Source of the DNA: an uncultured Thermoplasmata archaeon
GTDB taxonomy: Archaea; Thermoplasmatota; Thermoplasmata; Halarchaeoplasmatales; Halarchaeoplasmataceae
Direction of reading: 5' to 3'
NCBI GenBank assembly: GCA_964602715.1
Contig: CAZRSB010000003.1
Location: forward strand, 5,783 to 69,782
DNA: 64,000 nt
The translations under genes and the position numbers were made by a program. This document shows positions 1,284-33,738 of this stretch, piece by piece. Under the pieces are notes generated by a model that saw only the letters and a list, made by a program, of their open reading frames with translations, did no database searches and was not told where the DNA came from. Position 1 is the stretch's first letter, and each line of letters starts with the position of its first letter.

Positions 1284-1658
1284 ATGGCAAAAGAAGGTTT
1301 GACGAACGAGGAAGAAGAATTGATAGACAGACTCATAAAAGCAGGTATTCAGAAGAACACGGCACGGACACTGGTTTTCGTTGCCAGCCAAGACGAAGCC
1401 AAAAGCAGAGAGATAGAGGATGCCACGGAGCTGAGACAGCCGGAGGTATCCATATCGATACAGGAACTGAGAGACCACGGATGGGTCAGTAGGCGGAAAA
1501 TCAAGAAAGAAGGAAGAGGAAGGCCAGTTCACGGTTATCAGCTAGATAAACCGATGGACGAGATAATCAAAGAGATAGAGGAGAAAGAAAGGGAACGTAT
1601 AGCAGAGATTGAGGAGAACTTAGAGGAAATCAAAGAACTCGTTGGATCATGCTTGTAG
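1284..1658 (+). CDS. winged-helix (TrmB/MarR-like) transcriptional regulator
   Basis: 124 aa. Helix-turn-helix with wing (TARTLVFVASQDEAKSREIEDATEL...GRGRPVHGYQL), followed by an acidic coiled-coil tail. Confidence 0.55.
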   Translation: MAKEGLTNEEEELIDRLIKAGIQKNTARTLVFVASQDEAKSREIEDATELRQPEVSISIQELRDHGWVSRRKIKKEGRGRPVHGYQLDKPMDEIIKEIEEKERERIAEIEENLEEIKELVGSCL

Positions 1659-1976
1659 ATCCAAAACAAAGAGCATTGTTTAGTCTTTCTAGAAATCTAC
1701 GTGATTAGTTATTTCAAAATCAGGCTAACATTGCCTTTTCCGTATAGTTTTTTTCTCTAACCCTACAGTGGGTATTAGGTACATTAAAAATTCTTGGATT
1801 ATGGGTTCAGTAGAAAACCTTCATTTTAGCCGATCTAAAGTTATAATAATCTTCTTCTTCGGTTTTATAACAACCTGTTTTTGCCCTAGATAGCCAATTA
1901 TTACTCCTTATTTAGAGGTTTTCTACAGAGCTAAAGAACAATAAATTTTTAATATAAAGTTAATAATGAATTACCA

Positions 1977-3074
1977 ATGCCAGAATATAAAAATCAACAT
2001 TATGTTCCACAGTATTATCTAAAGTTTTTTAATGACGGGAATAATAAGATTTGTGTTTATAATTTTGATAAAATGGATGAATTTATGGTACCAGTCTCTA
2101 ATGTATGTTCCAATACTTACTTTTATGGTGAAGGGAACATCGAAGAAAGTTTGAATGATTTTGAAACTCAATGCTCAGAATTGATTGAAAAAATAATTGA
2201 GAATGGTAATTTGAATAATATTAGCAATGAAGAGTACACTTTATTATTACAATTTATCCTATTCCAAAGAAGAAGAACAAAAAAGGCTAAAAACGAGATC
2301 GATGAAATTGTACAACACTTTTTCAGAGAGATTACAAAATATGGGGTTGAAAGCGGAGAATTAGACGAAAAAGCCTATGATTTAGCACAGAAAGGAAAAA
2401 TTAGACTAGAACATCCTATGTTTCAATACAGTCTATTATATGGTCCACTTTTTTACAGATTAATAGCCGATCTTGAACCTCTATTAATTCAAAATGAAAC
2501 AAAGAAGGACTTCGTTATAGGAGAACATCCCATAATATTTGATAACCCTTTATTTAAACATACGCAAATTCATGGTGGGATAGGACCGCTAAATAAAGGG
2601 TTGGTTATAATATGTCCATTAAGTACTGAATTTGCGATATTATTGTATGATCCTAAATCTTATAAGTTTGAGTTTGAAAATAGGTTGAAAATCAAAATTA
2701 AAGATCCTTTAGTGATTAAATCACTTAATATTTGTCAATATATCTATAGTGATTCAAATCTGTTCTATGGTCAATGTGGAAGAAAATATGAGATGAGAAC
2801 TATTCAAAAATATTTTAGAGAAGATAAACAAGAAGAAATGTCTAAACACATAGAATATACTCAATCGAATACTAAAAAATCGTTTTTACAATCAACTTCA
2901 AACCCTAGCGATTCTACACCTTATCTACCGTTCCTAAAAGAAAAAAACGGCGTCGAGTTTAAGTTAGAAAGAATAGAAGGTTTAAGTGAGGAAATCCATA
3001 AAGAAGTTTTAACGTATCTTGAAGATTTTTCTGAGTTATCAGAAGACGAGATTAAAAATCTATTCTTCACTTAA
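1977..3074 (+). CDS. DUF4238-family protein (candidate single-gene antiphage protein, Rst_DUF4238-like)
   Basis: N-terminus MPEYKNQHYVPQYYLKFF matches the HYVPQ(F/Y)YL(R/K)xF signature that opens DUF4238 (PF14022). Gene is very AT-rich relative to core genes. Confidence 0.6.
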   Translation: MPEYKNQHYVPQYYLKFFNDGNNKICVYNFDKMDEFMVPVSNVCSNTYFYGEGNIEESLNDFETQCSELIEKIIENGNLNNISNEEYTLLLQFILFQRRRTKKAKNEIDEIVQHFFREITKYGVESGELDEKAYDLAQKGKIRLEHPMFQYSLLYGPLFYRLIADLEPLLIQNETKKDFVIGEHPIIFDNPLFKHTQIHGGIGPLNKGLVIICPLSTEFAILLYDPKSYKFEFENRLKIKIKDPLVIKSLNICQYIYSDSNLFYGQCGRKYEMRTIQKYFREDKQEEMSKHIEYTQSNTKKSFLQSTSNPSDSTPYLPFLKEKNGVEFKLERIEGLSEEIHKEVLTYLEDFSELSEDEIKNLFFT

Positions 3075-3255
3075 ATTAATAATTCGACGGGTATTCTCTC
3101 CTGCATTTCGCGATCCTGCTACGGTCGATCATTCCGCTGTTCATTGCGATGGTGATGAAAGAGAAGAATATATGATGAAAAATTGATTACAACTGAGTCT
3201 AAACGATAATGTATCTCTAGATAATATAAAAAATAGTAATTAAATAAGAGGGTTT

Positions 3256-3408
3256 TTAAACATCGCTGATTCCATGCTTATGAGCACAGTCAACGTGAGC
3301 ATAGTCATCAATCTCTTCATAATAAGCTGGAGTTCCTTTTTCTCGTGTTTGACCTTCACCGCAGAATTTACAAGTCCTTCCCATTTTATATTGGAATGAC
3401 TTCTTCAT
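3256..3408 (-). CDS. small zinc-ribbon-like protein (50 aa), not in ORF track
   Basis: Manual translation: MKKSFQYKMGRTCKFCGEGQTREKGTPAYYEEIDDYAHVDCAHKHGISDV. Contains CxxC plus C/H ligands. Confidence 0.35.
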   Translation of the reverse strand: MKKSFQYKMGRTCKFCGEGQTREKGTPAYYEEIDDYAHVDCAHKHGISDV

Positions 3409-3746
3409 TCAAATAATTTTTGAGACCGTTGTTTTATGATGTCAAATTCATAATGAACCTCTACATTTTCTTTATAAAAAATTGGAACAGTATTTCATTT
3501 TCCACCTACTCAAACTCGCATCTCTCGCAATCCATCGATAGCTTCGGCACCGGGGTCTCCATCTTCAGTATGGCGAAAGAGAATAGTAAGGAGTAAGAGC
3601 ACCCAGAGGAGTACGAGTGAAAGAGATTTTTTCTGTGCTGTAATAGGTCATTAAATCACATCTGGGTCTACTGATAGTTTAGTTACCAACATCGAACAGG
3701 AAACCGTAATCATTATGAAACACCTATGTGTTTACATAGGGAGGAT

Positions 3747-4505
3747 ATGATGCGCAAGAACACTATGCTGACCTTGGAGGAGAGCGTGACAGAAACGGCC
3801 AAAACCATTGGTATAAATCTCAGTCAAGTGGCCGAGAAGGCCATAAAAGAGAGGATTCAAGAGATACTAAGACCAAGGGGAGAGGGGGTTGTTCAGATCC
3901 CCCAAACGGAAAAGGTGGTGCTAAAGAACGTCGGACATTTCCAAGGTGAGAGGGAATTTGAGTTTTCGAGCGGCGTGAATATCATAGTCGGGCCTAACGC
4001 TTCAGGAAAAACTACCATAATCGATTCGTTGAGAGCTGCCTATGGAGATGAAAGGTCTCCGACGAAGAACCAGTTCATGGAGGAAGAAGATGAGAGCTGG
4101 GTACGTGTCGTCCCTGAAAACGGAGCAATAAGAAGGAACGTTGGAGATGAGATCTCGTTCCCGCAGGGAGATACTTCTGAAAGGCTCGATCTAGAGAGAT
4201 TCGAGGGCTTAACCGAGGACGTTAAAGAGCGGCTGAAGTCTAGTGAAACTGAGAGAGCCCTATCAGAGGGAGATAGAGTTCTCAAGGAGATCATCCTCCA
4301 GTCGATGGCCACGAGAGGTAACGAATGTTATCTTAGAGATGGGACGTTGGCGATGTTAGATACAGAGATGAAAGAGATGGTTTTGGATTTCCTATATGAA
4401 CAGGAATTTCAGGTCATACTCACTTACCCTGAGAGAGGGGAGGAAGATAGCGTGATAAGTTCAGAAGATCACAACTTGATAGAATTGGGAGAGAGGAGGT
4501 CCTAA
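3747..4505 (+). CDS. compact ABC/SMC-head-like ATPase with N-terminal RHH-like segment
   Basis: GGAGG RBS at 3738-3742 precedes ATG 3747; the track ORF starts at 3726. Motifs: RHH-like MLTLEESVTETAKTIGINLSQVAEKAIKERI; Walker A GPNASGKTT in an EFEFSSGVNIIVGPNASGKTTIIDSL context typical of SMC/RecF/AAA_21 N-termini; signature-like LSEGDR; Walker-B-like TLAMLDTE; H-loop-like ILTYPE. No coiled coil. Confidence 0.55.
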   Translation: MMRKNTMLTLEESVTETAKTIGINLSQVAEKAIKERIQEILRPRGEGVVQIPQTEKVVLKNVGHFQGEREFEFSSGVNIIVGPNASGKTTIIDSLRAAYGDERSPTKNQFMEEEDESWVRVVPENGAIRRNVGDEISFPQGDTSERLDLERFEGLTEDVKERLKSSETERALSEGDRVLKEIILQSMATRGNECYLRDGTLAMLDTEMKEMVLDFLYEQEFQVILTYPERGEEDSVISSEDHNLIELGERRS

Positions 4506-4602
4506 AATATGTCAAAATTCATTCGCCCCCTATTAGAGGGTTTTAATTGTGAGAAAAAGTATTACATCCCCCGAGAGTTGAAAAGGAGGTATTGATGATC
4601 CC

Positions 4603-5814
4603 TTGGTGAAGATCATGTCAGGAAAAGAAAAACAGGGGTTACACGATCTTTCTGAGGAAGCGATGGACCATTTTATAGAAGGTGTGGAAAAGCAGGAAAA
4701 TGGTCTGTTAGAAGAGGCTATAGAAGAATATGAAAAAGTGATCTCTATCGAAACAAACGATGCTTCAACAAGGAATGATAACGTAGATGCTTCTCGTAGA
4801 AATGGAAAGTCCGGTGAGGAATCCCAGACCTATGATAAGGCCCCCTCTATCGAACCAAAACTCGTTAGAGTGTGGGGCATCAAGGGAAAGGCCCATTTTG
4901 AAAAGGAAGAGTACGATGAGGCCATAAGATGCTTGGACAGAGCCACTTTAATCGATCCCAAGTACACCAATATGTGGATCCATAAGGGAAATGCCTACTT
5001 TGGGAGGGGAGAGTATGATGAGGCTATTGAGTGCTACGATAAGGCTACTGCTATCGAAGCCAAGTATCCCGAATACGCTAAAGTCCTGAACAGCAAGGCC
5101 GAATATGCTAAAGGTTGGAATGGAAAGGGAAAAGCCTACCAAAAGAAAGGTAAGTATGATGAGGCTATTGAGTGCTACGATAAGGCTATCTCTATAGATG
5201 CTGGGGGCGGTATAACATGGGAGATCGATTCTGAGCATGCTATAGCGTGGAATAATAAAGGAAATGTATACAAGGAGAGAGGTGAGTACGATGAGGCTAT
5301 ACGATGCCTTGACAAAGCCACTTCCATCAAGCCAGAGTACACTAATGCGTGGATCAATAAAGGAGTTGCCTATGATGGAAAAGAAGAGTACGATGAGGCC
5401 ATACGATGCCATGAAAAAGCGATCTCTCTTGATTCTGAGAACGCTGGTGTATTGAATAACAAAGGATTGGCCTATGAGGGGAAGGAAGAGTATGAGAAGG
5501 CTATAGGCTTCTTTGACAAAGCCACATCCCTCGATCCTGAGTGTGTTGGAGCATGGATTAATAAAGGCAATGCCTACAGAAAGAAGGGAGAGTTTGACGA
5601 GGCGATCCGCTGTTGTGAGAAAGTTTTATCCCTAGATTCTACGGATCCTGTAGCTTCGGCCATAATCTGGGCTTCTAAAGGGATGGTACATCGGGATAAT
5701 GAGGAACTAACAGAGGCGAAAGAATGTTTTGAAAAGGCTCTTGATCTCTTTCCAGAGTTGTCAGAAGTTGAACCTGTTTTGTCTGAGGTCAAAGAAGAAC
5801 TAGCCGAAACGTGA
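4603..5814 (+). CDS. TPR-repeat protein
   Basis: About 9 tandem 34-aa repeats of the form W..KG.A.....EYDEAI.C.DKA..ID. Start codon uncertain (TTG 4603 or ATG 4615). Confidence 0.8.
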   Translation: MVKIMSGKEKQGLHDLSEEAMDHFIEGVEKQENGLLEEAIEEYEKVISIETNDASTRNDNVDASRRNGKSGEESQTYDKAPSIEPKLVRVWGIKGKAHFEKEEYDEAIRCLDRATLIDPKYTNMWIHKGNAYFGRGEYDEAIECYDKATAIEAKYPEYAKVLNSKAEYAKGWNGKGKAYQKKGKYDEAIECYDKAISIDAGGGITWEIDSEHAIAWNNKGNVYKERGEYDEAIRCLDKATSIKPEYTNAWINKGVAYDGKEEYDEAIRCHEKAISLDSENAGVLNNKGLAYEGKEEYEKAIGFFDKATSLDPECVGAWINKGNAYRKKGEFDEAIRCCEKVLSLDSTDPVASAIIWASKGMVHRDNEELTEAKECFEKALDLFPELSEVEPVLSEVKEELAET

Positions 5815-7254: not shown

Positions 7255-8076
7255 TTAAGAGGCTTTGTACCCTTGACAGTTATCGCAGTACCATCTTTCA
7301 AATTCTTCGATAAATCGTAGAGATTTACTACAGTCTGGACACGGCGGGGAGCCGGGTTTTGGATCAGGTGAGTTAGGCTCAGATGGAGTTCTACATCTCC
7401 GTGAATCTCTAGACTTTTTTGGATCGATACCAGTCTCTCCAGTTGGCGAGTTTTCAGGTGAGCTTTCCTCTTTTTTTTCTTCGGGCGCATGTTCCTTATC
7501 CTGGTCGCTCTGGTCGTTCACCTCGATCTCTTCTTCACTGCCTTTCTCTTCGTCTATCTCTTGGGAGTTTTCCTCATCGAGTCCATCTTCCTGGACATCT
7601 ACTTTTTCACTTTCCTCTCTGAGATCCCCTTCTTCACTTTCTTCAAGAGCCTCTTCTTCCTCTACATCCTGCTGTTCCTCGTCTTCTTCACCTGCATCAG
7701 ATTCATCTTTTTCGCTTTCTTTTGTCTCTTTGGATACCTCTTCATCTCTTTCTTCTTTAGTCGGGCCCTCGCCTGGTTGGAGCGTGCTCTCTTCGCTCTT
7801 CATTTTCTTCTCTACTTCATCTTCTGAGATCTGTTCTTCCGATTTCTCAGACTTGCTCTTATTGTTCTGGATCCGATCGATGATCTCTCTGCGATCCCTG
7901 TTTTTCCTTTTCAAGTCCCTATCATTTTTCCGGTGCCATTCCTTTCGCTCTTTCATCTCATCTCTATTTGGTGGTCTGTAAAGTAGCGGAGCGTCCTCCA
8001 CGGGGGCTAAAAAAGGTTTTCGAAGTTCTTTTTCTGAGAGGGAAAACCCCTCTTCTAGATCTTCTTCAGCATGCAT
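7255..8076 (-). CDS. highly acidic, disordered protein with C-terminal zinc ribbon
   Basis: 273 aa of E/D/K/S low complexity ending in CPDCSKSLRFIEEFERWYCDNCQGY. Confidence 0.55.
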   Translation of the reverse strand: MHAEEDLEEGFSLSEKELRKPFLAPVEDAPLLYRPPNRDEMKERKEWHRKNDRDLKRKNRDRREIIDRIQNNKSKSEKSEEQISEDEVEKKMKSEESTLQPGEGPTKEERDEEVSKETKESEKDESDAGEEDEEQQDVEEEEALEESEEGDLREESEKVDVQEDGLDEENSQEIDEEKGSEEEIEVNDQSDQDKEHAPEEKKEESSPENSPTGETGIDPKKSRDSRRCRTPSEPNSPDPKPGSPPCPDCSKSLRFIEEFERWYCDNCQGYKAS

Positions 8077-8195: not shown

Positions 8196-8489
8196 TCATC
8201 CTTTCCAGAAGCAATCATCACAAAAAACGCACCTCTTTCCTTCTAAATCTATTTTATATCGCTCTTTACACTCTTCAAAACCTTCTTGTCGCCCCTCTTC
8301 ACGGGCTTCTTCTATCTCTTTTTTGAGATCTAGACTATCTTTGATGATCTCCTCCAGCCAATCTTTTTTGCTCATATCTACTTCCTGGAGGAGTTCCTCC
8401 AATTCCTCTTTCAGTTCTCGATCAACTCGGAAATTAATAATCGGATTTTGCTTCTCATATTTCTCCCTGGAAGGCGCTTTATCAGCCAT
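8196..8489 (-). CDS. ribbon-helix-helix (CopG-like) domain protein with C-terminal Cys cluster
   Basis: PIINFRVDRELKEELEELLQEVDMSKKDWLEEIIKDSL resembles the RHH strand-helix-helix. C-terminus has CVFCDDC. Confidence 0.5.
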   Translation of the reverse strand: MADKAPSREKYEKQNPIINFRVDRELKEELEELLQEVDMSKKDWLEEIIKDSLDLKKEIEEAREEGRQEGFEECKERYKIDLEGKRCVFCDDCFWKG

Positions 8490-8532
8490 TATAATTATAA
8501 CATCACCTGCTCTATATAGTTTTTTTGTTTTC

Positions 8533-8606
8533 TACATAGTTTACTATATGGTTTTCCATACAGTTTTCCATATGGTTTGCTGTATGGTTTTCCATATCGT
8601 TTGCTA
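8533..8606. repeat. about 6 degenerate tandem copies of a 12-bp unit (TATGGTTTTCCA / TACAGTTTTCCA / TATGGTTTGCTG / TATCGTTTGCTA)
   Basis: Read directly in sequence. Lies 45-120 bp upstream of the RHH gene start (8489). The 8323..8697 ORF across it is a repeat artefact. Confidence 0.6.
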
Positions 8607-9003
8607 TGTGCAAAGGGAGATTTTCTCTTATACTCGATCATCTCCTATAAATTCTCTGGATAGCGATTTTAGTCAAGGCGTAGTAGGGGTACACTAAAAG
8701 GTGCACTATTCCTCGGAAACCGCCGCATGCGGTATATTATACCCCTTCATTTCACCCCTGCCGGCCCCAGGGGGGATGAGGGGTCCCCAAGGGACGAGAG
8801 GAAAAGATGGAAGGAGGGAGCAGGGAAGACAGAAGAAAAGCCGGAGAGGAAAGAAGTAGGAGTAAGAAGAGAGGGGCGAGGGACCGGCGGAAGAGGATGA
8901 GATAGCAGGCGGAGATGAGAAAAAAGTATAGGTAGAAATTAAGAAAGTTTATATTTTAGACGAGCACTCTTTATATGTCAGACAGACTGGAGGCATTAAA
9001 AAT

Positions 9004-9802: not shown

Positions 9803-12058
9803 TCAACCGTAATCTTCAAAATTTCTACTTATATAGGGGGCCTGCTCTTTGGGCTTCAAAGGTTCAGTCCTATTTCCTCTTCTAACAAAGAATTTTCCCT
9901 TTCCTTCTCTTTCTATAAACGAGGGGGTATCTGCATGTTCAACTTCTATTAAGCACACTTCCTTACCATTTACGGTAAAGAAAGAAACCTCAATATAATC
10001 ATTGAATTTTTCTTCCATATAGGAAGAAACTAGATTGAGTAGATGCCGTTGGAAAGCTTCTCTTTTTTCTTCCTCTTTGAACGTATCATAATCTTCTTCT
10101 AGACCGTAAACTTCTCCATCATTTTTAACGCCGATTAATAAAGTCCCTCCTTCTTCTGAGTTCAAAAATCCATTTATAGCTTTCATCGATTGATATTCCA
10201 CATCTTTTGTTCTCATACCTCTATCTTTTATATCCGTACGAAGGGTGGATTTAAACTCTAAATTTTGACCTTCACCTTCTTCGATCAACAGTTGGACATT
10301 TGTATCTTGTGCCCTTGAATCGATAACATTGAAAGTTATCCCATCCAGCTCTTCTTTGAGAAGTTCTTCGAATATCTTTATCCTCTTCTCGATAAATTCA
10401 TCGAGATATTTATGGCCCAATTCATCATCCCGGCACCAGTCAAGTATGGCCTTGGGGATTAGATGGGTTTCTAACACCTCTTCAAATCCTTCTCCATCAT
10501 AATCTTTAAGATAGTCAATTGGATTCTTGTCACTGATCTCTAGATTTGTAATCTGGGGAATATAAGCTATGTTCATAAGGCTGTCTTCGTCCAATTCATT
10601 GTCACCAGGATAATCCTCTACAAATCCACGTGGAAAGATATGATGTAGGTTTGGCTTATCTATTAAATGATAATATACTTCACTTATCACTGATCTATCG
10701 TAGTGTTTCCAGTCTTTTGGATCCTGGTTCGATAAGAGGGACAAAATAGCTCTAGAAAATCTCCCTCTATAACTGTATGATGATTCTCTCAGATCATTCC
10801 TATCCAGAATGAAAGGTTCAAATTCAAATTCTTCTCCCTGTTTGGCTTTCTCTAACTCTTCTAAATGATCATATCGAAGATGTCTTGTGTGCTTCAGTTT
10901 CTCTTCATTGTGGAACGAATAATACCAGAAGTACTTTTTTAGTAAATCATAATCAGGATCATCGTTTTCGTAGAAATAAGATGAGATAGTTATGTAGAAA
11001 TATCTGTATGGGATAAGATTTGGACCTTTCAAATGAAGATGGTTTTCAAAGAAGTCAAAAGTATCCCTAAAGGCTTCTTTCGCTCCATCCCATACCTCTT
11101 CTATTTGTTTTGCTGTGATATTATTTAGATAGGTGTCAGTGATATTGTGGACACTTGCATCTTCTATGTTCTGTCTAATTATCATCGCTAACATCTGAAG
11201 GTATGTTTGATACCCTATTCCGGAAAACTCACCTGGTGTATTGTCTTTGAAATCATCTATCATCTCTCTCAGATAGAAACCGCCCTCTGGATGCCCTTCT
11301 TGCCTAAACGTTTTAGCTACCACTATGTCAAATATGTTGAGAGGTTCACCTTCCTGATTTACTCTCTCAAATATTTCACAGACCTCATTGGTCTCTATTC
11401 CCTTCAATTCAATAAATGGGATCCTGTAGTTATCCATCACATGCTTTATCTTCCTCAAATTTTCCCTGTAAGGATGTTCGTAAGAAGTATACCCTAGATT
11501 ATGTATATTCCTTTCAATCTCATTATAGTTCTCCTTTATATCTTTCAGTTTTACGATCAGTCCCTTTTTGTATCTTTTCATCTTTGGGATGTTCTGCTTA
11601 ATCTCTCCGCCTTTGTCGTCTATCTCACCCCAACATAAGAAGCGTTTTTTATACTTTGAATCTTCCTCGTCTTCTTCCTCCTCCACCGTGAGGTCAACGT
11701 ACATAGTGGGCTCAAAGTCTCTTCTCCACTCCCCTTTAGCCCCATATAGGGAGGTTAGCAGGGCTGTTGTCCTTTGCTGCCCATCCAATATATATTTGAA
11801 GTCTGATTCTCTCTCAGAATCGTCGATCTCGTGTCCCCCGATCTTCCTATGTTTCTGCAGTTTTACATCTGTCTTCCAGACCAATATGCTCCCAATCGGG
11901 TAAAATTTATAGATACTGTCCCACAACTTTTTCACATTGTTCTTTTCCCAAATAATTTCCCTCTGGAAAGTGGGAATCTGATATTTTTTGTTCTTCAAAT
12001 TTTCAAGATATGTCCCTATAGAATCATGAGTGGGTTTGATTCTATCTGCATCTTCCAT
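9803..12058 (-). CDS. GmrSD-like type IV restriction-type nuclease (DUF262 + DUF1524) fused to a C-terminal AlbA_2/Schlafen-like domain
   Basis: N-terminal DUF262 motifs (QREIIW, ILDGQQRTTAL). Central His-Me-finger/DUF1524-like HHIFPRGF...NIAYIPQITNLEISDKNP. C-terminal EFKSTL...AINGFLNSEEGGTLLIGVKNDGEVYGLEED resembles the AlbA_2 (PF04326) core. Confidence 0.65.
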   Translation of the reverse strand: MEDADRIKPTHDSIGTYLENLKNKKYQIPTFQREIIWEKNNVKKLWDSIYKFYPIGSILVWKTDVKLQKHRKIGGHEIDDSERESDFKYILDGQQRTTALLTSLYGAKGEWRRDFEPTMYVDLTVEEEEDEEDSKYKKRFLCWGEIDDKGGEIKQNIPKMKRYKKGLIVKLKDIKENYNEIERNIHNLGYTSYEHPYRENLRKIKHVMDNYRIPFIELKGIETNEVCEIFERVNQEGEPLNIFDIVVAKTFRQEGHPEGGFYLREMIDDFKDNTPGEFSGIGYQTYLQMLAMIIRQNIEDASVHNITDTYLNNITAKQIEEVWDGAKEAFRDTFDFFENHLHLKGPNLIPYRYFYITISSYFYENDDPDYDLLKKYFWYYSFHNEEKLKHTRHLRYDHLEELEKAKQGEEFEFEPFILDRNDLRESSYSYRGRFSRAILSLLSNQDPKDWKHYDRSVISEVYYHLIDKPNLHHIFPRGFVEDYPGDNELDEDSLMNIAYIPQITNLEISDKNPIDYLKDYDGEGFEEVLETHLIPKAILDWCRDDELGHKYLDEFIEKRIKIFEELLKEELDGITFNVIDSRAQDTNVQLLIEEGEGQNLEFKSTLRTDIKDRGMRTKDVEYQSMKAINGFLNSEEGGTLLIGVKNDGEVYGLEEDYDTFKEEEKREAFQRHLLNLVSSYMEEKFNDYIEVSFFTVNGKEVCLIEVEHADTPSFIEREGKGKFFVRRGNRTEPLKPKEQAPYISRNFEDYG

Positions 12059-12573: not shown

Positions 12574-15500
12574 TCAGTATCTACTTTCTATACCGTCTGG
12601 TGGGCGTGGTCCTTCCAACGGACTCTGATAGGGGCTTTCCCCTTCCAACTCTGTATCTCCTCCTGGGTTTATCCCGTTCAGGCCTTGATTGATCCATTTA
12701 TAGGCCACTCCTTCCTTTTTTTTGACAAGTGTATCAGTTTTCTCCTCTAGTTCATTCAGGCATCGTCGCACCTGTCTCTTTGACAAGTCGATCTTCTTTG
12801 CAATCGTCTTAGTGGTAAACTCTTCTCTTTTTTTCGCCTCTGAAAAGACTTTCTTCATCCCATCACTCCAAATATTTATGACCCCTGGTTGTGTCTCGTG
12901 AGGGACCCAATCAGGTAAAGTGTTCGTTTCGACATACACAACCGCTCCTTGTCCGTCTCTCCCGAAGCGCATTACTGCTTGAAGAGTGGCATTATGAGTC
13001 ATATGCCGATAGATTTTATTCCCAAAATCCCCATAGTCAGTATCCTCCCCTCTCCCTTCTCTTTCTACTCCCTCGTTTTGGTAGGCCCCCCATTTTTTGA
13101 TGTAATCGTCTCCGCAGTGATTCGATCCGATAACCACACCCAATCGCTTTTTTTTAAGCTTATTTGATCCTTTCAGATTACCGTAGTGAGTGTGATCATC
13201 GACGAATGTGAGCAATCCTTCTTCTTGGTATTGGTCCTTTGCTTTTTTCGTGGTGATCATAGAGGGCCTCTGATCATATAGTTCCGTTAGCTTTTGAAGA
13301 AGGAGCCGATCCGACTCGATGTTGACGTAATTCCCTGAGGAGTAGGGTTTCATGTGCTCAGTCGTGCGGATAAAATGATGATTCAATCCTTCCTTGAGGT
13401 ATTTCTTTCTTTCACTGTCATCCAATACCTGACGATGTTCTAATCTTGCACCACCAAGAGAAATTTCCCACATCTCTTTAATGGGAGTTCCATCTAATGC
13501 AATGATTTGCCTGCAGTAGTACAGATTCGGGGGTTTCATGACGTGAATTCTGTTAGTCGCTCGGTTATGAAGAACGGTGAGATGCTTATTTTTATCAAAA
13601 TAGCGCTTACGCTCGTATCCGTTGACCGTATTATCTTCATCTCCCACCATTTCAAGGAGGGCATGAATCACTGTAGGGGTAAGTGAATGTGTTTCTTCTG
13701 AGTCAAGGACCCATGTTGGGGTTTTCTCCTTCATTCCATCGAGATATTCGAGTGCTTTTTCCCGCCTTTTTTCATCATCCCTGTTTTCCAAAAGATCGGT
13801 AATGTTTTGGAAAGGGATCCTATCTTCGTCCTGAAGGTAATCCGATATGGCTTTTTTTAATTTTTCCGCTGAAAATTTTTCCTCAAAGGCATCCTCGGGA
13901 AATTCATCGAATACTACTGTTCTCTTTTTCGTAACTTTGGGAAGATGAGCACATAGATAATGCCCTATCAGAACATCGTAATATTCCGGATCGAAGTTCC
14001 AAGCCATGCTGTACGGACATGCCCCATCCTTTTGACACGGAGGAGAGCAGTATTTATGGATCTGTTGTGGGGTAAGCCCTCGTTCATACCAATCTTTTAC
14101 CTTATCTTTCCACTCTTCACCGTGTTCCCCTGTTGCTGTTGGACAACTCTGAAAAAAAGAAGGTAGCCGTTTATATGAGAGGTTCTCATCCTCGCACCAC
14201 TCTTCTATCTGTTTATACTGCTCTTTATGTCCCCGATCGGTAAGAACCGTTAGGGGTGTGTGTGTTTCTTTAGCGGCTTTGATTATACCGTTGCTCTTCC
14301 CTAACGAGGGTAGTGCATCGATGAGGATGTTTTCTTGGCTTTCTAACGCATCTACAAGGCAGTCTAACGTTTTTTTCCGTGCTTTTTCCACATGCCTTCT
14401 CCGTGGTCTGTCATCTATGAGGATGGGTTCAACAGGTAAATCACTTACATCATCAGGCTTGTTCACTGAAACTAATAGATCTGGTTTTGGAGATCCTTTT
14501 TCGAGGATGGGAATATCATATCCTCCCTCACTAAGTCCCTCTACGGCTTTCCAGAATGTCCTCCCGTCGAGTTTTTCAGCAGGAGTTGATATGAGCCCCA
14601 CTCCCAGCGCATACGCCTTGAGAGGACCACCGCCCTTATCTACTTTGTTATCTATGAACCGATTTTCTCCTTCAGGGATTGCACAAGATTTTCCGCTTTC
14701 ACTCTCCCGCCAAGAGGGGTTGAAGGTGATTTCGGATGATCTGTTCGAGGTGTCAAACTCGTCGGAAGCGTACTTTTTGACGATCTCTTTTACATCGATC
14801 CTATTAACAGCATCTACTACATCACACCAGTTATCGGTAGTTTCTAAATCAGCCAGGTTAATGTTCTTTTTACGACGCTCTTCCCGTCTCTCTTTCCGAT
14901 CTTCGGTAATTTTTTTTCGCCGTTTTTCTTTTTCCTTCTCCTCTTCAACCCAAGTCTTAAGGGCAACTTTCCAGTCCCCTTCGTAGAAATCTGGAAAGAG
15001 ATCTGAAATCATTTTGTCGAGTGGTCTATGGTTTTCGGGAACTGTGGTAAAATCTACACACCATTCTTTGACCTTTGAAATCAATTCGCTGTCTACGTCT
15101 TCCTTGCGAATCAACTTGTACTCCACGGTGGCAGTATCTATTGGATGGACCACGCCATCTATTTCTTTGTGTAAAGAGAGAGGGCCTTTATATTGCCGAT
15201 TCTTATTGTTAATCGCATCCATTTTACAGATTTCTTCTGCTCCATCAACGCTTTCAAGAACTTCAATCCTCTTTTTTTTAATCCAGTCATTCATGCGGTC
15301 CGTCAATTCATCGAATATTTTTCCCTTGCTGTTCAAATCGCTAATAGGTGCAGTGACGCCTGGAGCAGTGAATATGTAAACTCCTCCAACAGAATCCAAT
15401 AGAAAGACGTGATCCTCTCCTACCAACCTCTCGAATTCTTTTATCATCTTCTCTATCACTTTTGAGAATATTTTTTTCTTCTCAGAAGGAAGGGAGCGCT

Positions 15501-15903
15501 CTTTATGGGCATCCTTTAGGTCAATATCAACGAATAAAGCAGTGGCATAGATTTCATCATAATTAGGCAGAGGTGATTCCCCTCCCTCAAAATATGTGCC
15601 CCCATCGGTACTTTTGCATAATTTCTCTTTCAGAACATCTTTTTTCTGGTAGTTGAGCACGGCGTAATAGTGTCTGTCGATCTGATCTGCAAGTTCTCCA
15701 GCATCACCTCCCAAACTGTAAGGGCGGCCCCGATACTGATATCCTTCTTCGTAGCTTTCGATTTTCTTAGCCGGTCTTTTGTGGTACCACCCATAGTGAT
15801 CACTGATGCCAAAAGTAGTAGTCTCTTCCATCCCTCCTAGAGCTTTGAAAATCGGGATCAATTTTTGGTAATACTTCCTGTGCTCACTCCTTTTCCGTGT
15901 CAT
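12574..15903 (-). CDS. replication initiator-like protein: AEP primase-polymerase-like N-domain, P-loop NTPase, C-terminal wHTH
   Basis: AEP motif I-like ALFVDIDLKD and motif II-like DSVGGVYIF. Walker A-like LPSLGKSNG and Walker B VVFDEFPE. C-terminal helix-turn-helix KTIAKKIDLSKRQVRRCLNELEEK. 1109 aa. Confidence 0.55.
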   Translation of the reverse strand: MTRKRSEHRKYYQKLIPIFKALGGMEETTTFGISDHYGWYHKRPAKKIESYEEGYQYRGRPYSLGGDAGELADQIDRHYYAVLNYQKKDVLKEKLCKSTDGGTYFEGGESPLPNYDEIYATALFVDIDLKDAHKERSLPSEKKKIFSKVIEKMIKEFERLVGEDHVFLLDSVGGVYIFTAPGVTAPISDLNSKGKIFDELTDRMNDWIKKKRIEVLESVDGAEEICKMDAINNKNRQYKGPLSLHKEIDGVVHPIDTATVEYKLIRKEDVDSELISKVKEWCVDFTTVPENHRPLDKMISDLFPDFYEGDWKVALKTWVEEEKEKEKRRKKITEDRKERREERRKKNINLADLETTDNWCDVVDAVNRIDVKEIVKKYASDEFDTSNRSSEITFNPSWRESESGKSCAIPEGENRFIDNKVDKGGGPLKAYALGVGLISTPAEKLDGRTFWKAVEGLSEGGYDIPILEKGSPKPDLLVSVNKPDDVSDLPVEPILIDDRPRRRHVEKARKKTLDCLVDALESQENILIDALPSLGKSNGIIKAAKETHTPLTVLTDRGHKEQYKQIEEWCEDENLSYKRLPSFFQSCPTATGEHGEEWKDKVKDWYERGLTPQQIHKYCSPPCQKDGACPYSMAWNFDPEYYDVLIGHYLCAHLPKVTKKRTVVFDEFPEDAFEEKFSAEKLKKAISDYLQDEDRIPFQNITDLLENRDDEKRREKALEYLDGMKEKTPTWVLDSEETHSLTPTVIHALLEMVGDEDNTVNGYERKRYFDKNKHLTVLHNRATNRIHVMKPPNLYYCRQIIALDGTPIKEMWEISLGGARLEHRQVLDDSERKKYLKEGLNHHFIRTTEHMKPYSSGNYVNIESDRLLLQKLTELYDQRPSMITTKKAKDQYQEEGLLTFVDDHTHYGNLKGSNKLKKKRLGVVIGSNHCGDDYIKKWGAYQNEGVEREGRGEDTDYGDFGNKIYRHMTHNATLQAVMRFGRDGQGAVVYVETNTLPDWVPHETQPGVINIWSDGMKKVFSEAKKREEFTTKTIAKKIDLSKRQVRRCLNELEEKTDTLVKKKEGVAYKWINQGLNGINPGGDTELEGESPYQSPLEGPRPPDGIESRY

Positions 15904-22449: not shown

Positions 22450-22525
22450 TGGTGCGGGTTCGGGGATTTGAACCCCGGTTATAGCCTTGGCAAGGCTAGG
22501 TGATACCAAACTACACCAAACCCGC
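22450..22525 (-). tRNA. tRNA-Gly(GCC): tRNA-Gly (anticodon GCC), CCA encoded
   Basis: Reverse complement folds as GCGGGTT/AACCCGC acceptor, anticodon loop TTGCCAA, T-arm CGGGG-TTCAAAT-CCCCG. 76 nt. Confidence 0.85.
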
Positions 22526-29325: not shown

Positions 29326-32300
29326 TCAAAAATCTAGAGAAAGTCGTTTTTTCTTTTTTTTCTCCTTTTCCGCTTTCTTTTCCTCTTTCTCTTCTTGAAA
29401 TTCATACACTACTAAATTAGTTCCGCAATCCGGACACTCCTCTTCTTCCTGAGAACAAGAGACATCATAGAGTTTACCACAGCTACAGTAAATTAGTTTT
29501 TCACCTTCATCGATCATCTCCCCACAAACTTCACATTTTTCCTTTTCCTCGGCAACTCTTAACTCTGAGCCTAGACTCACATCTAAAATTTCTTCGTCTT
29601 CAAAATTTTTATCGTCAAATATTCTAAGACCGCTAGCTACGATAGAGGCTCCCTCGTTCGAAGGTTTGATTTCACATGTGATCACGTGTTCTTCTCCAGC
29701 TTTTAGCTTTTCTTTGTTTGATATATCTCTAATCTCGCCCCCTATGAGTTCTATTTTGATATCTTTAGCGAGAGCTTGACCCTGGTTTATTAGTGAAATA
29801 TCCGCTTCATCCCATTTATCTACAGTAAATTTTCCAGAAACGTGCACTTCAATATCTGGGCTGTAATCAGAAAGCACATCCTCAATCTCTTGATGAGCTT
29901 CTTTTATTTTTTCAAAGGCTTCTATTTTGTCTTTCTCCTTTTTTATTGCCTCGGCCTCCTCTAATTTTTCTACAGCTGATTTGACGGAAGCTCCGAATTT
30001 TTTAGCATTTTTTATGGATTCCTTAACTTGGTTTAGAATCTCATCATACTCTTTCTGCTTCTTCAGACCTGAAATATTTTTAGCCTCTTCAATATATTTC
30101 GAAGCTTCTATAGGGTTATCAAACTCCATGAAAAATCTAGCTTTCTTCAGTATCTCTAACGCATTATCGACATCCTTTTCTCCTTTTTTTCTGACGTCTC
30201 CTTCTAGATTCTCAATGACGTCCCTGATCACGTCTTTATTTTCTGCTAAAATTTTATCAATATCTTCTAGAATCCTTTTAGCTTTTTTATATTGGCCATT
30301 TCTGTGATATTGGATGACTTCATTTTTCCTTTCTTCAAACTCAGATATATCTATTTCTCGATTTTCAAACTCTTCCATCAGGGTGTCAATATTATCTATA
30401 AAAAGTTTGATGTCTTCATACGCTTTCAATAGATTACTTAATTCTTCCCAAGCTTTCCAGGAATTTTCAATCACCTTAGTGTAGAAACCACTCTCATATG
30501 ATTGATTTGCTTGTTTCAGTATTTTTTTTGGTTGTTCAATTAGGATACCTTGATCCTGGAGCCTTTCTAACTCCTCTTTAGTTTTCGTAAGGCTTATGTT
30601 GGCTAATTTCTTCTGCATGCCCATCCTTTCTAGCTCACCCTCTGTTTGCATCGCGAACTTTACACCTTCGAGAAATCTCCTTTCATTTTTAGCTTTAACA
30701 GCTTTTTGAATCTTATTTTCAGCAAGAGCGGTATAAACGCCTTTATCACTTAGATCTTTTATTCTTTTTTTAGAATTGTTTATGATCTGTTCTAATCTAT
30801 CCTGCTGAGCTTTCTTACTGTCATCTAAAATTTTTTCAGCCTTTTCAAAAGCTTCATGATACCTAGCTTTTTCTATGTCTTCTTCAGCTTTTTCACTTAA
30901 CTTCCTTTCCTTACTTACATCCGCACCCATTATAGCAGCCTTCATCAAAGTGGTCTTGGCCTCAGCTAACACTTTTCTAGCTGATTTACCTTCTTCTTTA
31001 ATTTCATCAAGATCTTCTTTCAGGCCTTTTAACTTTTCTAGAGAATCCGTAATCCTTTTTTGGTTCAGCAAAGATCTTGTCCGTTTAATCTTATCTTTTT
31101 TCTCATCAACTTGAAAGCCCATCTCTTTCGCACAATCGCAGATGTCTTTAATCTTTTCTAATTCCTCATCTAAAGATTTTTCCAATATATCATTCAATTC
31201 GGTCTGTTTCTCTTTTATAATCTCCTTCACATCCGATTTTTCCCTGTCACTAACGGACTCTTTGATCTCTTGAAATTCTTCCTCGAATTCTTTAACCTCT
31301 TTATCAGAGAGCTCATAATTTTCTATTTTTTCTAATTTTTCTTCGATATTATGTGTTACCTCTTCAAAAAGATTATCAAATTCAAAGTTAGTGAGGATTT
31401 CATCAGCTTCCTGGGTTTTTTGTATGCTGTTCTCGTAATTCCTTGCTTCAAATTCTTTTTTTGCCTCTAACAATATGTTCTTTGCTGAATTGAGTTCATC
31501 ACCATCTTTTTTCTTTCTAAGATCTTTTAATTTAGATGCCGCGGCTGAAAGCATATCATAAGCTTCTTTTCTTTTATCTTTCAACTTAACCAGCTCCTTT
31601 TTCAATTTCTTTGCCGAAATTATACTATCGACAAAATTTTTTCTTTCTGTTTCTTCCTCTAAGTTTTTTAAATTTTCTTCATAAGCATCGGTTTCGACCC
31701 CCTCCTTCTTCGCCTCTTCTATCTCCTCTCTCGTTGTAGTCAGGGTTTTCTCAGCTATCAGAGATAGCGAGTTATTTAGGCTATCAAAAGCTTCTTCTAT
31801 TAAGGGCAAAGCTTCTGTTTCTTCGTCATCTTTCATGAAATCCTTAGCTTTTTCTATTTTTTCCTTTTGAGTGTCTATGTCTTCTACTTCTATCTCTTCT
31901 TTTTCAACTAGCTCTATTTTATCAAGAACCTCATCAATCTTGCTTTCTGCGGCACCCATCTTGACTCTTTTTACTTTTTTTCTTAAATGTTCTAGATTCT
32001 TTATAGAATCATCATATCTACTTTCTTCGATGCTTTTTTCACCTTTTGATACGATATCACTGAGCTCCTCCTTTGTCTCCTTTTCGATGTCTTCTATCTC
32101 GATTTGTTTTTCCCTAATTTCATCGTACTCCTGCTTTAATTTGCTTTCGATTTTTTCTGAAATTATCTCTATTCCTTTTTGAGCTATCTCAGCACTTTCT
32201 AAGTGATCAGAAGCTTCATATTTTTCACGGCTTCTTTTTATCTGATCAGAAAGTGATTCTAAATCGATATCTAATTTTTTTGCGCTTTTAGATAGATCTT

Positions 32301-33738
32301 CTAAATCACTGATCAGTGATTTAGCCTTTTCTTTTGATGCCTTAACTATTTTCTCCTGAAGCTCCTGGGATAAAGATGTTACTTTTTCTAAATTTTTTTC
32401 ATCCCATTGATATTTTATATCCTCTATTAACCCCTCTAACTCTTCAAAATCCTCCTCAAAAACGTTAATTAGTTTCCTGACTTCATCTTTCTGTTCTTGT
32501 ATCTTTTCTTTAGTTTTTTCAAACTTTTCAGTTAATTCTTGAACCTTTTCTCTTCCTTTGTGAGCCCACTCTAAAGATTCCTTGTAATCGTTCTTTTTCA
32601 AAGAATCTCTAGCAGTATTTAAAAATCGCATAGGCTCTTTTATGTCTGCACCTATCTCTTTAGCTTTTATGAAATCCTCCCTAGATTCCGCTATAGTATT
32701 CAAAACTTTATCGAATTTTTTTTCTTCAATTTTTTCTAAAGCTTCATTTAATAATCTATCAGCTTCTTCAATTTTGTCTTTTTTTTCTAAATTTTCAGCC
32801 TCCTCCCTCATCTCTTCTACTGTTTTTATAGGAGCATCTATCTCTTCTGCTTCCTCTATCTCCTCATCTAATTTCCTGAATTTTGATCCTAATATCTTTT
32901 CATCATAGATCTGATTGATCTCTTTTTTACCTTGTTTTAAATCTCTCAAAGCTTCTAAATATTTTTCCTCTTTGATTTTAGATTTTCCGTCATTTAATAA
33001 TTTATCCAAATTCGTTAATTTAATATCCTTGTTTTCTTCTAATTTCGCTTTTTTCCTTTCGATTTCGTTTATATTTTCCTGTAAGCCTTCTTCTACATGG
33101 TCTAGTATCTCTTTTTCTATATCTTGGATCAGAGACAAAGCTCTTTCAAATTCTTGAGAATCCAAAGAATACTCAGCCTTCGAAACCAACTCTTTCCCGG
33201 CCTCTTTTACATCTTCTGGTTCATCAAGGAAATCTATTAGAGACTCTAATCTTTCTTTCCTTTCTATTAAACCTTTTTCAATTATTTTCTCTGATTCCTT
33301 TTTCACCGTCACGATTTCATTTAAACCTTCTTCAATATTTCCCTTTTCTAGAAGAACCTTACAGTTTTCGATCTTTTCCTGCATCTCCTTAGATCCGCTC
33401 TCAGAATCAACTTCTTCTAGTATCTTATCTAAAGGACCAATCAACTCTTCATATTTTGAGATGCTTTGTGATTTTATAGATTCAATAACTTCTTGAAAAA
33501 TATCCAATGATTTTCTAAAATTCTTTTGTTCTAATTCTTCTTTACCTTCCTCAAATGACGTCTTCACATCTTCCAATTCTAAATCTACCTCGGAGGACTC
33601 AGCCAAATCAAGGAGTTTTTCCGTTTCTTTCATCATCTCCTGGGCATTTTTCTTTTCTTCCGCCGTCTTTTTGGCTTTTTCCTCCATCTCCTTTGCAAGT
33701 TGTCTTGCTTTTAGATACTTACCTGACAATCTTTTCAC
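29326..33738 (-). CDS. giant coiled-coil protein (1470 aa) with C-terminal beta-rich domain and zinc ribbons
   Basis: E/K-rich heptad-like sequence through about 1250 aa. C-terminus: CEVCGEMIDEGEKLIYCSCGKLYDVSCSQEEEECPDCG, then a KEKKKKK tail. Confidence 0.7.
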   Translation of the reverse strand: MKRLSGKYLKARQLAKEMEEKAKKTAEEKKNAQEMMKETEKLLDLAESSEVDLELEDVKTSFEEGKEELEQKNFRKSLDIFQEVIESIKSQSISKYEELIGPLDKILEEVDSESGSKEMQEKIENCKVLLEKGNIEEGLNEIVTVKKESEKIIEKGLIERKERLESLIDFLDEPEDVKEAGKELVSKAEYSLDSQEFERALSLIQDIEKEILDHVEEGLQENINEIERKKAKLEENKDIKLTNLDKLLNDGKSKIKEEKYLEALRDLKQGKKEINQIYDEKILGSKFRKLDEEIEEAEEIDAPIKTVEEMREEAENLEKKDKIEEADRLLNEALEKIEEKKFDKVLNTIAESREDFIKAKEIGADIKEPMRFLNTARDSLKKNDYKESLEWAHKGREKVQELTEKFEKTKEKIQEQKDEVRKLINVFEEDFEELEGLIEDIKYQWDEKNLEKVTSLSQELQEKIVKASKEKAKSLISDLEDLSKSAKKLDIDLESLSDQIKRSREKYEASDHLESAEIAQKGIEIISEKIESKLKQEYDEIREKQIEIEDIEKETKEELSDIVSKGEKSIEESRYDDSIKNLEHLRKKVKRVKMGAAESKIDEVLDKIELVEKEEIEVEDIDTQKEKIEKAKDFMKDDEETEALPLIEEAFDSLNNSLSLIAEKTLTTTREEIEEAKKEGVETDAYEENLKNLEEETERKNFVDSIISAKKLKKELVKLKDKRKEAYDMLSAAASKLKDLRKKKDGDELNSAKNILLEAKKEFEARNYENSIQKTQEADEILTNFEFDNLFEEVTHNIEEKLEKIENYELSDKEVKEFEEEFQEIKESVSDREKSDVKEIIKEKQTELNDILEKSLDEELEKIKDICDCAKEMGFQVDEKKDKIKRTRSLLNQKRITDSLEKLKGLKEDLDEIKEEGKSARKVLAEAKTTLMKAAIMGADVSKERKLSEKAEEDIEKARYHEAFEKAEKILDDSKKAQQDRLEQIINNSKKRIKDLSDKGVYTALAENKIQKAVKAKNERRFLEGVKFAMQTEGELERMGMQKKLANISLTKTKEELERLQDQGILIEQPKKILKQANQSYESGFYTKVIENSWKAWEELSNLLKAYEDIKLFIDNIDTLMEEFENREIDISEFEERKNEVIQYHRNGQYKKAKRILEDIDKILAENKDVIRDVIENLEGDVRKKGEKDVDNALEILKKARFFMEFDNPIEASKYIEEAKNISGLKKQKEYDEILNQVKESIKNAKKFGASVKSAVEKLEEAEAIKKEKDKIEAFEKIKEAHQEIEDVLSDYSPDIEVHVSGKFTVDKWDEADISLINQGQALAKDIKIELIGGEIRDISNKEKLKAGEEHVITCEIKPSNEGASIVASGLRIFDDKNFEDEEILDVSLGSELRVAEEKEKCEVCGEMIDEGEKLIYCSCGKLYDVSCSQEEEECPDCGTNLVVYEFQEEKEEKKAEKEKKKKKRLSLDF

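Follow-up and report, generated by a model that had tools for sequence, protein, structure and literature searches.

Does a small ATPase gene that sits beside a defence gene belong to that gene's defence system, or does it serve an element of its own? This question is raised by a stretch of 64,000 nucleotides (nt), hereafter the window, from contig CAZRSB010000003.1 of an uncultured Thermoplasmata archaeon, in which a gene encoding a ribbon-helix-helix (RHH) domain fused to a miniature ATP-binding cassette (ABC) head lies between a DUF4238 gene and a gene for a tetratricopeptide-repeat (TPR) protein. A first-pass annotation had grouped the three as a possible defence system. We find that the RHH-ATPase gene is independent of DUF4238 and that its product, P0001, appears, from sequence comparison, to bind a repeat in its own promoter. 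The gene and the two domains of its product are as follows.

3747..4505, plus strand: RHH-mini-ABC ATPase gene encoding P0001, 252 amino acids (aa); the open reading frame (ORF) was called at 3726..4505(+)
3747..3869, plus strand: RHH DNA-binding domain, residues 1-41, comprising the strand KNTMLTL and helices 12-21 and 25-41
3903..4487, plus strand: minimal ABC head of the Rad50/SMC/RecF class, residues ~53-247, lacking a coiled coil and with a reduced lobe II

The N-termini of homologues read M(R/K)KNTML, which sets the translation start of P0001 at 3747 or 3750 and its length at 252 aa, and a dN/dS ratio (nonsynonymous to synonymous substitution rates) of 0.12 relative to an 82%-identical homologue indicates a functional coding sequence under purifying selection. 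At the N-terminus, residues 3-40 match Pfam CcdA (PF07362) with 26.6 bits against a cutoff of 22.4, over profile positions 1-38 of 71, and residues M7, L8, T9, A18, K19, N24 and S26 are invariant in an alignment of the seven-member clade to which P0001 belongs. The remainder of the protein matches Pfam AAA_23 (E 7e-16), while SMC_N (38 bits, cutoff 40), AAA_21 (26.8 bits, cutoff 27) and AAA_15 (24.9 bits, cutoff 32.1) stay below threshold and AAA_29 is also weak. Models from NCBIfam and PADLOC match over only ~50 residues around the P-loop, the PADLOC matches covering residues ~55-115 of P0001 and positions ~1-60 of models that are 370-700 positions long.

An AlphaFold2 (AF2) model calculated from an alignment with 28 diverse relatives reached a predicted local distance difference test (pLDDT) score of 84 and a predicted template modelling (pTM) score of 0.82; it was used instead of a model from a seven-sequence alignment, for which pLDDT was 38.5. 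The model displays an unpaired N-terminal strand region followed by helices 12-21 and 25-41, the topology of an RHH domain, and then an alpha/beta domain in which residues 132-170, about 40 residues modelled with low confidence, are all that lies between the N-lobe strands and the signature helix. A profile of the family aligns end to end with the head of P. furiosus Rad50 (E 1.6e-15), the coiled coil and lobe II of Rad50 appearing as a single insertion, and P0001 can thus be described as a stripped Rad50/SMC/RecF-class head of ~195 aa joined to an RHH domain. The Pfam CcdA match, the predicted fold and the Rad50 alignment together bear out the architecture proposed in the first-pass annotation, an RHH N-terminus on a coiled-coil-less SMC/RecF-type ABC head that lies outside every named family, and the model and the profile alignment likewise uphold its P-loop head fold.

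The motifs of the head are listed below, Walker B and the D-loop as placed by alignment with Rad50; conservation was counted in a family set of about 90 distinct sequences of RHH-mini-ABC proteins 200-260 aa in length.

3990..4016, plus strand: Walker A GPNASGKTT, residues 82-90
4260..4277, plus strand: ABC signature LSEGDR, residues 172-177, the counterpart of LSGGQ/E
4326..4343, plus strand: Walker B CYLRD198 followed by G199, from alignment to Rad50 FFIDEG, with the catalytic carboxylate absent
4347..4361, plus strand: D-loop LAMLD205, aligning to SSLD of Rad50
4410..4427, plus strand: Q222-V-I-L-T226-Y227, the strand before the H-loop position, with Tyr for His (compare the RecF-like QxxxT)

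The Walker A and signature-like motifs named earlier hold up well: G82, G87 and K88 are kept in 85-87 of the 90 family members, and LSEGDR aligns with the LSGGE of the homologues P0016 and P0019. Signature residues S173 and G175 are invariant in the seven-member clade, as is D205 of the D-loop, and the signature is missing from many shorter family members. The segment LAMLDTE, previously read as Walker B, has to be reassigned because LAMLD is the D-loop; alignment with T. maritima Rad50 (FFIDEGFSSLD) places the Walker B Asp at D198 and the catalytic Glu position at G199. This position is G or K in all seven clade members, and among the 90 distinct family sequences the residue following the Walker B Asp is D in 41, E in 19, G in 15, N in 6 and K in 2. 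Of the proposed H-loop-like segment the strand is present, with the Q222 position kept in 88/90 and T226 in 72/90, but the H-loop His itself, rare across the family alignment, is replaced by Y227. P0001 also contains a Q-loop-like FPQGD that is not conserved across its clade. The motif pattern suggests a site that binds ATP and dimerises, with hydrolysis predicted to be poor.

Immediately upstream of the start codon lies a repeat.

3723..3740, no strand assigned: operator-like inverted repeat CCTATGT-GTTT-ACATAGG, 6 nt upstream of the start codon and inside a 56-nt promoter stretch conserved with the closest locus, L009

The CCTATGT heptamer is paired nowhere else in the window and is not enriched there (7 matches versus 5.1 expected), which points to a single operator. 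Within the clade, the half-site ACCTATGT is present twice upstream of every member; loci L001 and L003 carry it as a direct repeat with a 12-bp period, L009, L012 and the window as an inverted one. The broader family has half-sites of the form CATATG-N2-CATATG(T/G)A, often directly 3' of a TATA-like box. When searched for with a permissive regular expression, the paired motif is found in 49 of 51 family promoters, at 12-56 nt upstream of the KKNT codon, compared with 52 of 10,196 background 70-nt windows from the same loci (0.5%), and the two promoters that this expression missed carry obvious variants. With a strict motif, 38 of the 41 occurrences in 373,585 bp scanned fall at the gene's own promoter. 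The type of half-site also follows the sequence of the RHH beta-strand, with the KNTLLYL strand accompanying CATATG in 42/45 members and the KNTMLTL strand accompanying CCTATG in 6/7, counts that are uncorrected for shared ancestry and not phylogenetically independent. Paired half-sites of this kind are the signature of an RHH autoregulator and mark a putative operator overlapping the core promoter of the gene itself. A family-wide operator-like motif is a new and testable result.

Whether the neighbouring genes share in this arrangement can be judged from L009, where the same flanking genes enclose different DNA.

1284..1658, plus strand: MarR-family winged helix-turn-helix (wHTH) gene (Pfam MarR_2), the conserved left flank of the slot
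1699..3690, no strand assigned: variable cargo slot, with blastn boundaries between window and L009 at 1698 and 3691
1977-3074, plus strand: DUF4238 gene, slot cargo
3256-3408, minus strand: 50-aa Zn-ribbon ORF, slot cargo
4615..5814, plus strand: TPR gene, downstream of the ATPase gene, conserved in L009 only

At the amino acid level the window and L009 are 78% identical in MarR, 82% in the RHH-ATPase and 57% in the TPR protein, but between MarR and the ATPase promoter (1699-3690 in the window, 973-4349 in L009) the DNA is wholly different. In place of DUF4238, the L009 slot holds a PDDEXK_4 (PDC-S26) gene and an ApeA-HEPN (PDC-S58) gene, and the slot is bounded on its right by the conserved 56 nt of the ATPase promoter. 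DUF4238 is a published single-protein anti-phage defence from a P2 prophage hotspot (PMC9122126). As the slot contents differ between MarR and the ATPase gene and DUF4238 is a single-gene defence, the region is best described as a hotspot with exchangeable stand-alone cargo, in which DUF4238 is swappable and is context only for the RHH-ATPase. A defence system built from the ATPase, DUF4238 and TPR genes is therefore not upheld, and neither is a conserved linkage among them: homologues of 48-60% identity have neither neighbour, DUF4238 is absent from all the other ATPase loci examined, and TPR is kept in L009 alone. The MarR/RHH-ATPase slot is nevertheless of interest as an archaeal defence hotspot that could be mined for new cargo. 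In L009 the TPR gene starts 3 nt past the ATPase stop codon. In the window, a 28-aa ORF at 4509-4595(+) shares with the L009 TPR gene both the ATGTCAA start and the 3-nt spacing from the ATPase stop, and it appears to be a relic of the ancestral TPR start, the present start lying at 4615.

The close family is small, with seven clusters; soda-lake sediment samples and metagenome-assembled genomes (MAGs) of Thermoplasmata are among its metagenomic sources. The members at 48-60% identity, those of L001, L003 and L008, have the RHH-ATPase linked to an IetA-like classical AAA+ ATPase of ~500 aa that is 35-57% identical between loci. Only these two genes are common to all three loci, L001 and L003 sharing a few more unknown genes, and the other window ORFs of at least 60 aa have no homologue in the distant loci L001-L008. 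In L003 the RHH-ATPase gene is one of a cluster of same-strand genes whose other products include an MCM helicase, a MoxR-like ATPase (phrog_1297) and a DUF2201/VWA protein (phrog_1314). This cluster, at L003 1-16768, also contains three paralogous unknowns of ~270 aa and a TPR protein, has HTH-CBS genes on its flanks, and looks like an integrated plasmid or provirus.

Beyond the clade, an exhaustive profile search returned 940 proteins at E≤1e-3, of which 47 reached E≤1e-10, and many of the best matches are proteins of 200-260 aa whose alignments take in the RHH (KKNTLLYLD...) as well as the head. Metagenomes scanned with a degenerate DNA pattern encoding KKNTLLYLD yielded ~50 further members with their flanks. 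Word-indexed homologue searches were dominated by RecF of candidate phyla radiation (CPR) bacteria with the broad profile and returned mostly fragments with an RHH-only profile. Judged by their sequences, the RHH-mini-ABC proteins are a broad, unnamed and previously uncharacterised family whose source annotations are 'hypothetical', generic or wrong, and we found no description of the fused family in a literature search that had the ABC ATPase classification of Krishnan et al. 2020 outside its scope. One member comes from an MSBL1 archaeon. Another, L015 (PWHJ01000098.1), is on a 3.3-kb contig binned as a Bacteroidetes MAG, and its predicted product scores identically on the family profile to P0005 from a Thermoplasmata MAG, so that L015 may have been binned wrongly or may come from a mobile element that the two bins have in common.

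Where a host can be assigned, the family sits in variable, mobile-element-like regions of archaeal genomes. The neighbourhoods are highly variable and mostly made up of unannotated genes; the commonest neighbour, an integrase-like protein of ~440 aa, is found at 9 of 55 loci and no neighbour family exceeds it, the lesser ones being an RHH-less paralogue directly downstream (4 loci), an AAA+ ATPase (3 loci), DNA methylases, wHTH regulators and resolvases. At the 45 loci with a callable downstream ORF, the next gene is co-directional within 150 nt in 21 cases, where its type is heterogeneous, and convergent in 20, indicating that no co-directional downstream partner is obligatory. The RHH-less mini-ABC paralogue, of 185-190 aa, follows the RHH-ABC gene at L103 2950-3507(-), L107 87-653(-), L126 2771-3343(-) and L027 1695-2258(+), either overlapping it or separated from it by no more than 6 nt, suggesting that the heads of some members are heterodimeric. 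Separate ORFs, adjacent or overlapping, for the RHH (51-61 aa) and for the ATPase (150-181 aa) are also seen at L032 1867-2525, L050 372-1066 and L074 1822-2473, either by natural split or by frameshift, an arrangement that fits a two-module design, and stand-alone RHH homologues of 43-97 aa exist as well.

With modest confidence, as a reading somewhat more probable than not, we propose that the RHH-ATPase acts on its own as an autoregulated ATP switch that binds DNA, and that it belongs to the backbone of an integrated mobile element or genomic island and not to the DUF4238 defence gene. The RHH domain would dimerise through its beta-strand and bind the paired CCTATGT half-sites at 3723-3740, a step for which the comparative evidence is strong; as these half-sites have the conserved promoter stretch on one side and the start codon on the other, binding would result in self-repression, and in repression of the TPR gene if it is co-transcribed. 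The C-terminal ~195 aa, as fold and motifs show, supply an ABC head of the Rad50/SMC/RecF class that keeps the elements for ATP binding and dimerisation: the Walker A Lys, Walker B Asp, signature Ser and Gly and D-loop Asp are all retained. Engaged Rad50, SMC and RecF heads bind DNA. ATP sandwiched between two heads could couple two operator-bound RHH dimers or, alternatively, allow the protein to clamp or bridge more DNA. The ATP-bound state is likely to be long-lived because the clade retains neither the catalytic Glu (G199) nor the H-loop His (Y227) and has no conserved Q-loop; this would make the protein a latch or sensor and not a motor. At the level of the locus, comparison with L009 presents the gene and its promoter as the fixed right border of a slot that swaps single-gene defence cargo. 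Our best guess for the biological output is element maintenance, regulation or immunity, and the mobile-element context comprises the integrase-like neighbours at 9/55 loci, MCM, DNA methylases, resolvases and the tyrosine integrase of the window.

Several points weigh against this proposal. An acidic residue follows the Walker B Asp in 60/90 family members, and with about two-thirds of the family so equipped hydrolysis may matter family-wide. The assignment of 3723-3740 as an operator is a comparative one, drawn in part from half-site and strand counts that lack phylogenetic independence. A repressor that targets its own promoter alone has no obvious output, and the motif searches covered flanks of 8 kb or less, so distal sites may have been missed. 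Finally, no att-like direct repeats were found within window positions 1-23000, and with the element borders not located, the term 'integrated element' is taken from gene content.

The alternatives differ in the purpose they assign to the same two domains. The RHH-mini-ABC protein could be the ATPase or sensor of an anti-virus system whose effector lies next to it (the TPR protein here, the IetA-like AAA+ ATPase elsewhere), on the pattern of AriA/AriB, PtuA/PtuB, GajA/GajB and LmuB/LmuA. We consider this unlikely, since the PADLOC matches extend over no more than the ~50 residues around the P-loop, no effector recurs (the downstream gene is a paralogue, an AAA+ protein, a NUDIX protein, an AAA_14-DUF4143 protein or an unknown), the convergent downstream gene at 20/45 loci leaves the ATPase gene alone, and adjoining defence genes are exchanged independently of it. 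Somewhat more doubtful is a role in maintenance or partition, in which the RHH would anchor the protein to a site on the element while the ATP-engaged head binds DNA non-specifically, pairing copies or tethering the element to the chromosome, much as ParG/ParF would if joined in one polypeptide, or as type Ia ParA, which is autorepressor and ATPase at once. The enrichment of the family beside integrase, MCM and other mobile-element genes would suit such a device, as would the DNA binding of engaged heads noted above, and the combination of RHH and ATPase parallels both partition pairs and the DndE(RHH)-DndD(ABC) DNA-scanning pair. However, the gene is accompanied at each locus by just one two-half-site operator and by no centromere-like array, the ATPase differs in type from ParA/MinD, and the window copy is chromosomal and beside an integrase, making partition unnecessary.

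A fused addiction or abortive module, with a CcdA-like RHH 'antitoxin', an AAA_21/AbiEii-like ATPase 'toxin' and toxin-antitoxin-style autoregulation, is suggested by the CcdA antitoxin being the best Pfam match of the RHH, by the JGI label of 'post-segregation antitoxin' on stand-alone RHH homologues, by an operator in the gene's own promoter that is typical of type II toxin-antitoxin loci, and by the weak AAA_21 match that falls short of its cutoff. Yet there is neither a toxin partner nor CcdB, no toxic domain is evident, the CcdA match is limited to the DNA-binding half of the profile, and the ATPase clusters with Rad50, SMC and RecF and not with AbiEii, making such a module very improbable. 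Least probable of all, and in our estimate remote, is a counter-defence decoy, a hydrolysis-dead head that would heterodimerise with and poison the SMC- or Rad50-like immune or repair complexes of the host, its expression restrained by the fused RHH in the manner of Aca-Acr fusions. The loss of the catalytic Glu, H-loop His and conserved Q-loop with retention of the dimerisation motifs, the mobile-element setting, and a tight autoregulation resembling Aca logic (PMC13551039) are compatible with a decoy, but the catalytic carboxylate is kept in two-thirds of the family and two scans of IMG/VR viral contigs, their sensitivity limited to two short peptide patterns each, found no copies. A bolder view, which we hold to be improbable, is that the RHH-mini-ABC is a minimal single-polypeptide SMC/Rad50-like DNA machine, with an RHH anchor and a head whose ATP-driven engagement would clamp or bridge DNA, through which archaeal integrative elements might silence, pair or tether themselves, or of which the hydrolysis-dead clade might be a 'head mimic' that poisons host SMC/Rad50 complexes; it would then constitute a new functional class of ABC protein carrying its own conserved operator.

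The principal features of the wider window, of which the tyrosine integrase enters into the proposal of an autoregulated switch on an element backbone, are listed here.

43230-46835, strand not given: full-length SMC, separate from P0001
58686-62309, plus strand: RpoB, one unsplit protein of 1207 aa
17762-18997, minus strand: tyrosine integrase with a C-terminal zinc ribbon
22450-22525, minus strand: tRNA-Gly(GCC) gene, ~3.5 kb from the integrase, with an ABC-2 transporter pair between them
9803-12058, minus strand: 751-aa fusion of a GmrSD N-terminal (DUF262-type) domain and a C-terminal Schlafen/AlbA_2 domain (PADLOC PDC-M55C, HEC-05)
12574-15903, minus strand: ORF of 1109 aa inside the island, with no Pfam and no PADLOC match
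29326-33738, minus strand: ORF of 1470 aa with no Pfam match
7255-8076, minus strand: extremely acidic low-complexity protein of 273 aa with no Pfam or PADLOC match and a Cys-rich C-terminus, CPDC...CDNC

The window is archaeal chromosomal DNA, with a genuine SMC, an unsplit RpoB, aIF2-alpha, aIF5B and ArcTGT among its products. Thermoplasmata are expected to have RpoB in one piece, and it is also from Thermoplasmata MAGs that the closest homologues of P0001 come. The left ~19 kb of the window is an island with DUF4238, the GmrSD-Schlafen fusion and the tyrosine integrase. Two more of its genes, for a type IIG/DrmMI-like enzyme and for a PLD nuclease, fall immediately beyond the window and are seen in L010. 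A tandem array at 8527-8607, in which a 12-nt unit (consensus GTTTTCTATATG / GTTTTCCATATG) is repeated 6.8 times, is found directly upstream of a 97-aa ORF at 8196-8489(-) that may encode a second RHH protein, to judge by its N-terminus (NPIINFRVDRELKEELEELLQEVDMSKKDWLEEIIKDSL). The core of this 12-nt iteron is similar to the CATATG half-sites seen in the broad RHH-mini-ABC family, and the array might serve the island as an operator, centromere or origin. The CPDC...CDNC end of the 273-aa protein looks like a zinc ribbon.

If the model of an autoregulated switch holds, P0001 would be among the smallest SMC/Rad50-class heads known and, as far as we found, the first described in which a sequence-specific DNA-binding domain is fused to the head and its cognate site can be identified. 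It would thereby offer a tractable system for the action of ABC heads on DNA without coiled coils, the CATATG/CCTATG pairs over putative archaeal promoters would be a concrete cis-element, and the RHH-ATPase would serve as a marker gene for poorly charted archaeal integrative elements. The locus also holds a lesson for annotation in that an ABC ATPase beside defence genes need not be part of their system.

Compared with known systems, P0001 works in the manner of a Rad50/SMC/RecF head coupled to an autoregulator of the CopG/CcdA type. It shares with SMC and Rad50 an ABC head assembled from N- and C-terminal halves with Walker A, signature, Walker B and D-loop, but it is devoid of the long antiparallel coiled coil with its hinge or zinc hook and of the catalytic Glu and H-loop His (D198-G199 and T226-Y227 in P0001). 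Relative to the heads of Rad50, SMC and RecF in general, its own measures only ~195 aa, has lost most of lobe II and has gained an N-terminal RHH, and the size of RecF (~350-370 aa), its helical lobe II arm and its dnaN-recF-gyrB or recFOR context all set RecF apart. With the CcdA/CopG/Arc autoregulators it has in common the beta-alpha-alpha domain and the paired short repeats overlapping its own promoter, although its RHH is fused to an ABC ATPase where theirs carries a toxin-binding tail or nothing. CcdA/CcdB in particular shares the RHH N-domain, but P0001 has no C-terminal CcdB-binding tail or adjacent ccdB and instead continues as an ABC head, followed by the TPR gene. The RHH protein F55 of SSV1 binds tandem repeats. 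This lysogeny regulator is CopG-like (PMC4158269). ParA/ParG partition systems combine a ParA/MinD fold bearing a deviant Walker A with an iteron centromere array, whereas the fold of P0001 is ABC and each locus has a single two-half-site operator.

The defence ATPases of the AAA_15/AAA_21 type (GajA, PtuA, AriA, LmuB, mad3 of MADS and OLD) resemble P0001 in their N-terminal P-loop region and head fold, but they are 400-700 aa long, with inserted helical or coiled-coil domains, a Toprim domain or dedicated nuclease partners that P0001 does not have. A full-length match to the models of Gabija, Septu, PARIS, Lamassu or OLD is not seen for P0001, nor is a conserved link to a dedicated effector gene seen among the 55 loci of its family. 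For DUF4238 itself, the single protein suffices for defence and no ATPase partner is needed (Rousset et al. 2022, PMC9122126). The slot resembles the P2/P4 hotspots described in that study, of which DUF4238 is a P2-hotspot system, in having conserved flanks around varying stand-alone defence genes; it differs in its archaeal host, in that just two slot alleles were observed, and in that the element itself is undefined. Since a defining feature of each is lacking, P0001 lies outside the SMC/Rad50, RecF, CcdAB and ParA systems and the AAA_15/21 defence ATPases. DndE, a double RHH, and the DndD/CxC ABC ATPase form a DNA-scanning pair (PMC10853773). In Dnd, as would be the case in P0001, an RHH DNA-recognition module acts with a dimerising ABC ATPase of the SMC-like assemblage, but in two separate proteins, with a coiled coil in DndD and linked modification genes, none of which applies to P0001. 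By analogy, the DndE(RHH)-DndD(ABC) pair is the nearest conceptual counterpart of P0001 (PMC10853773).

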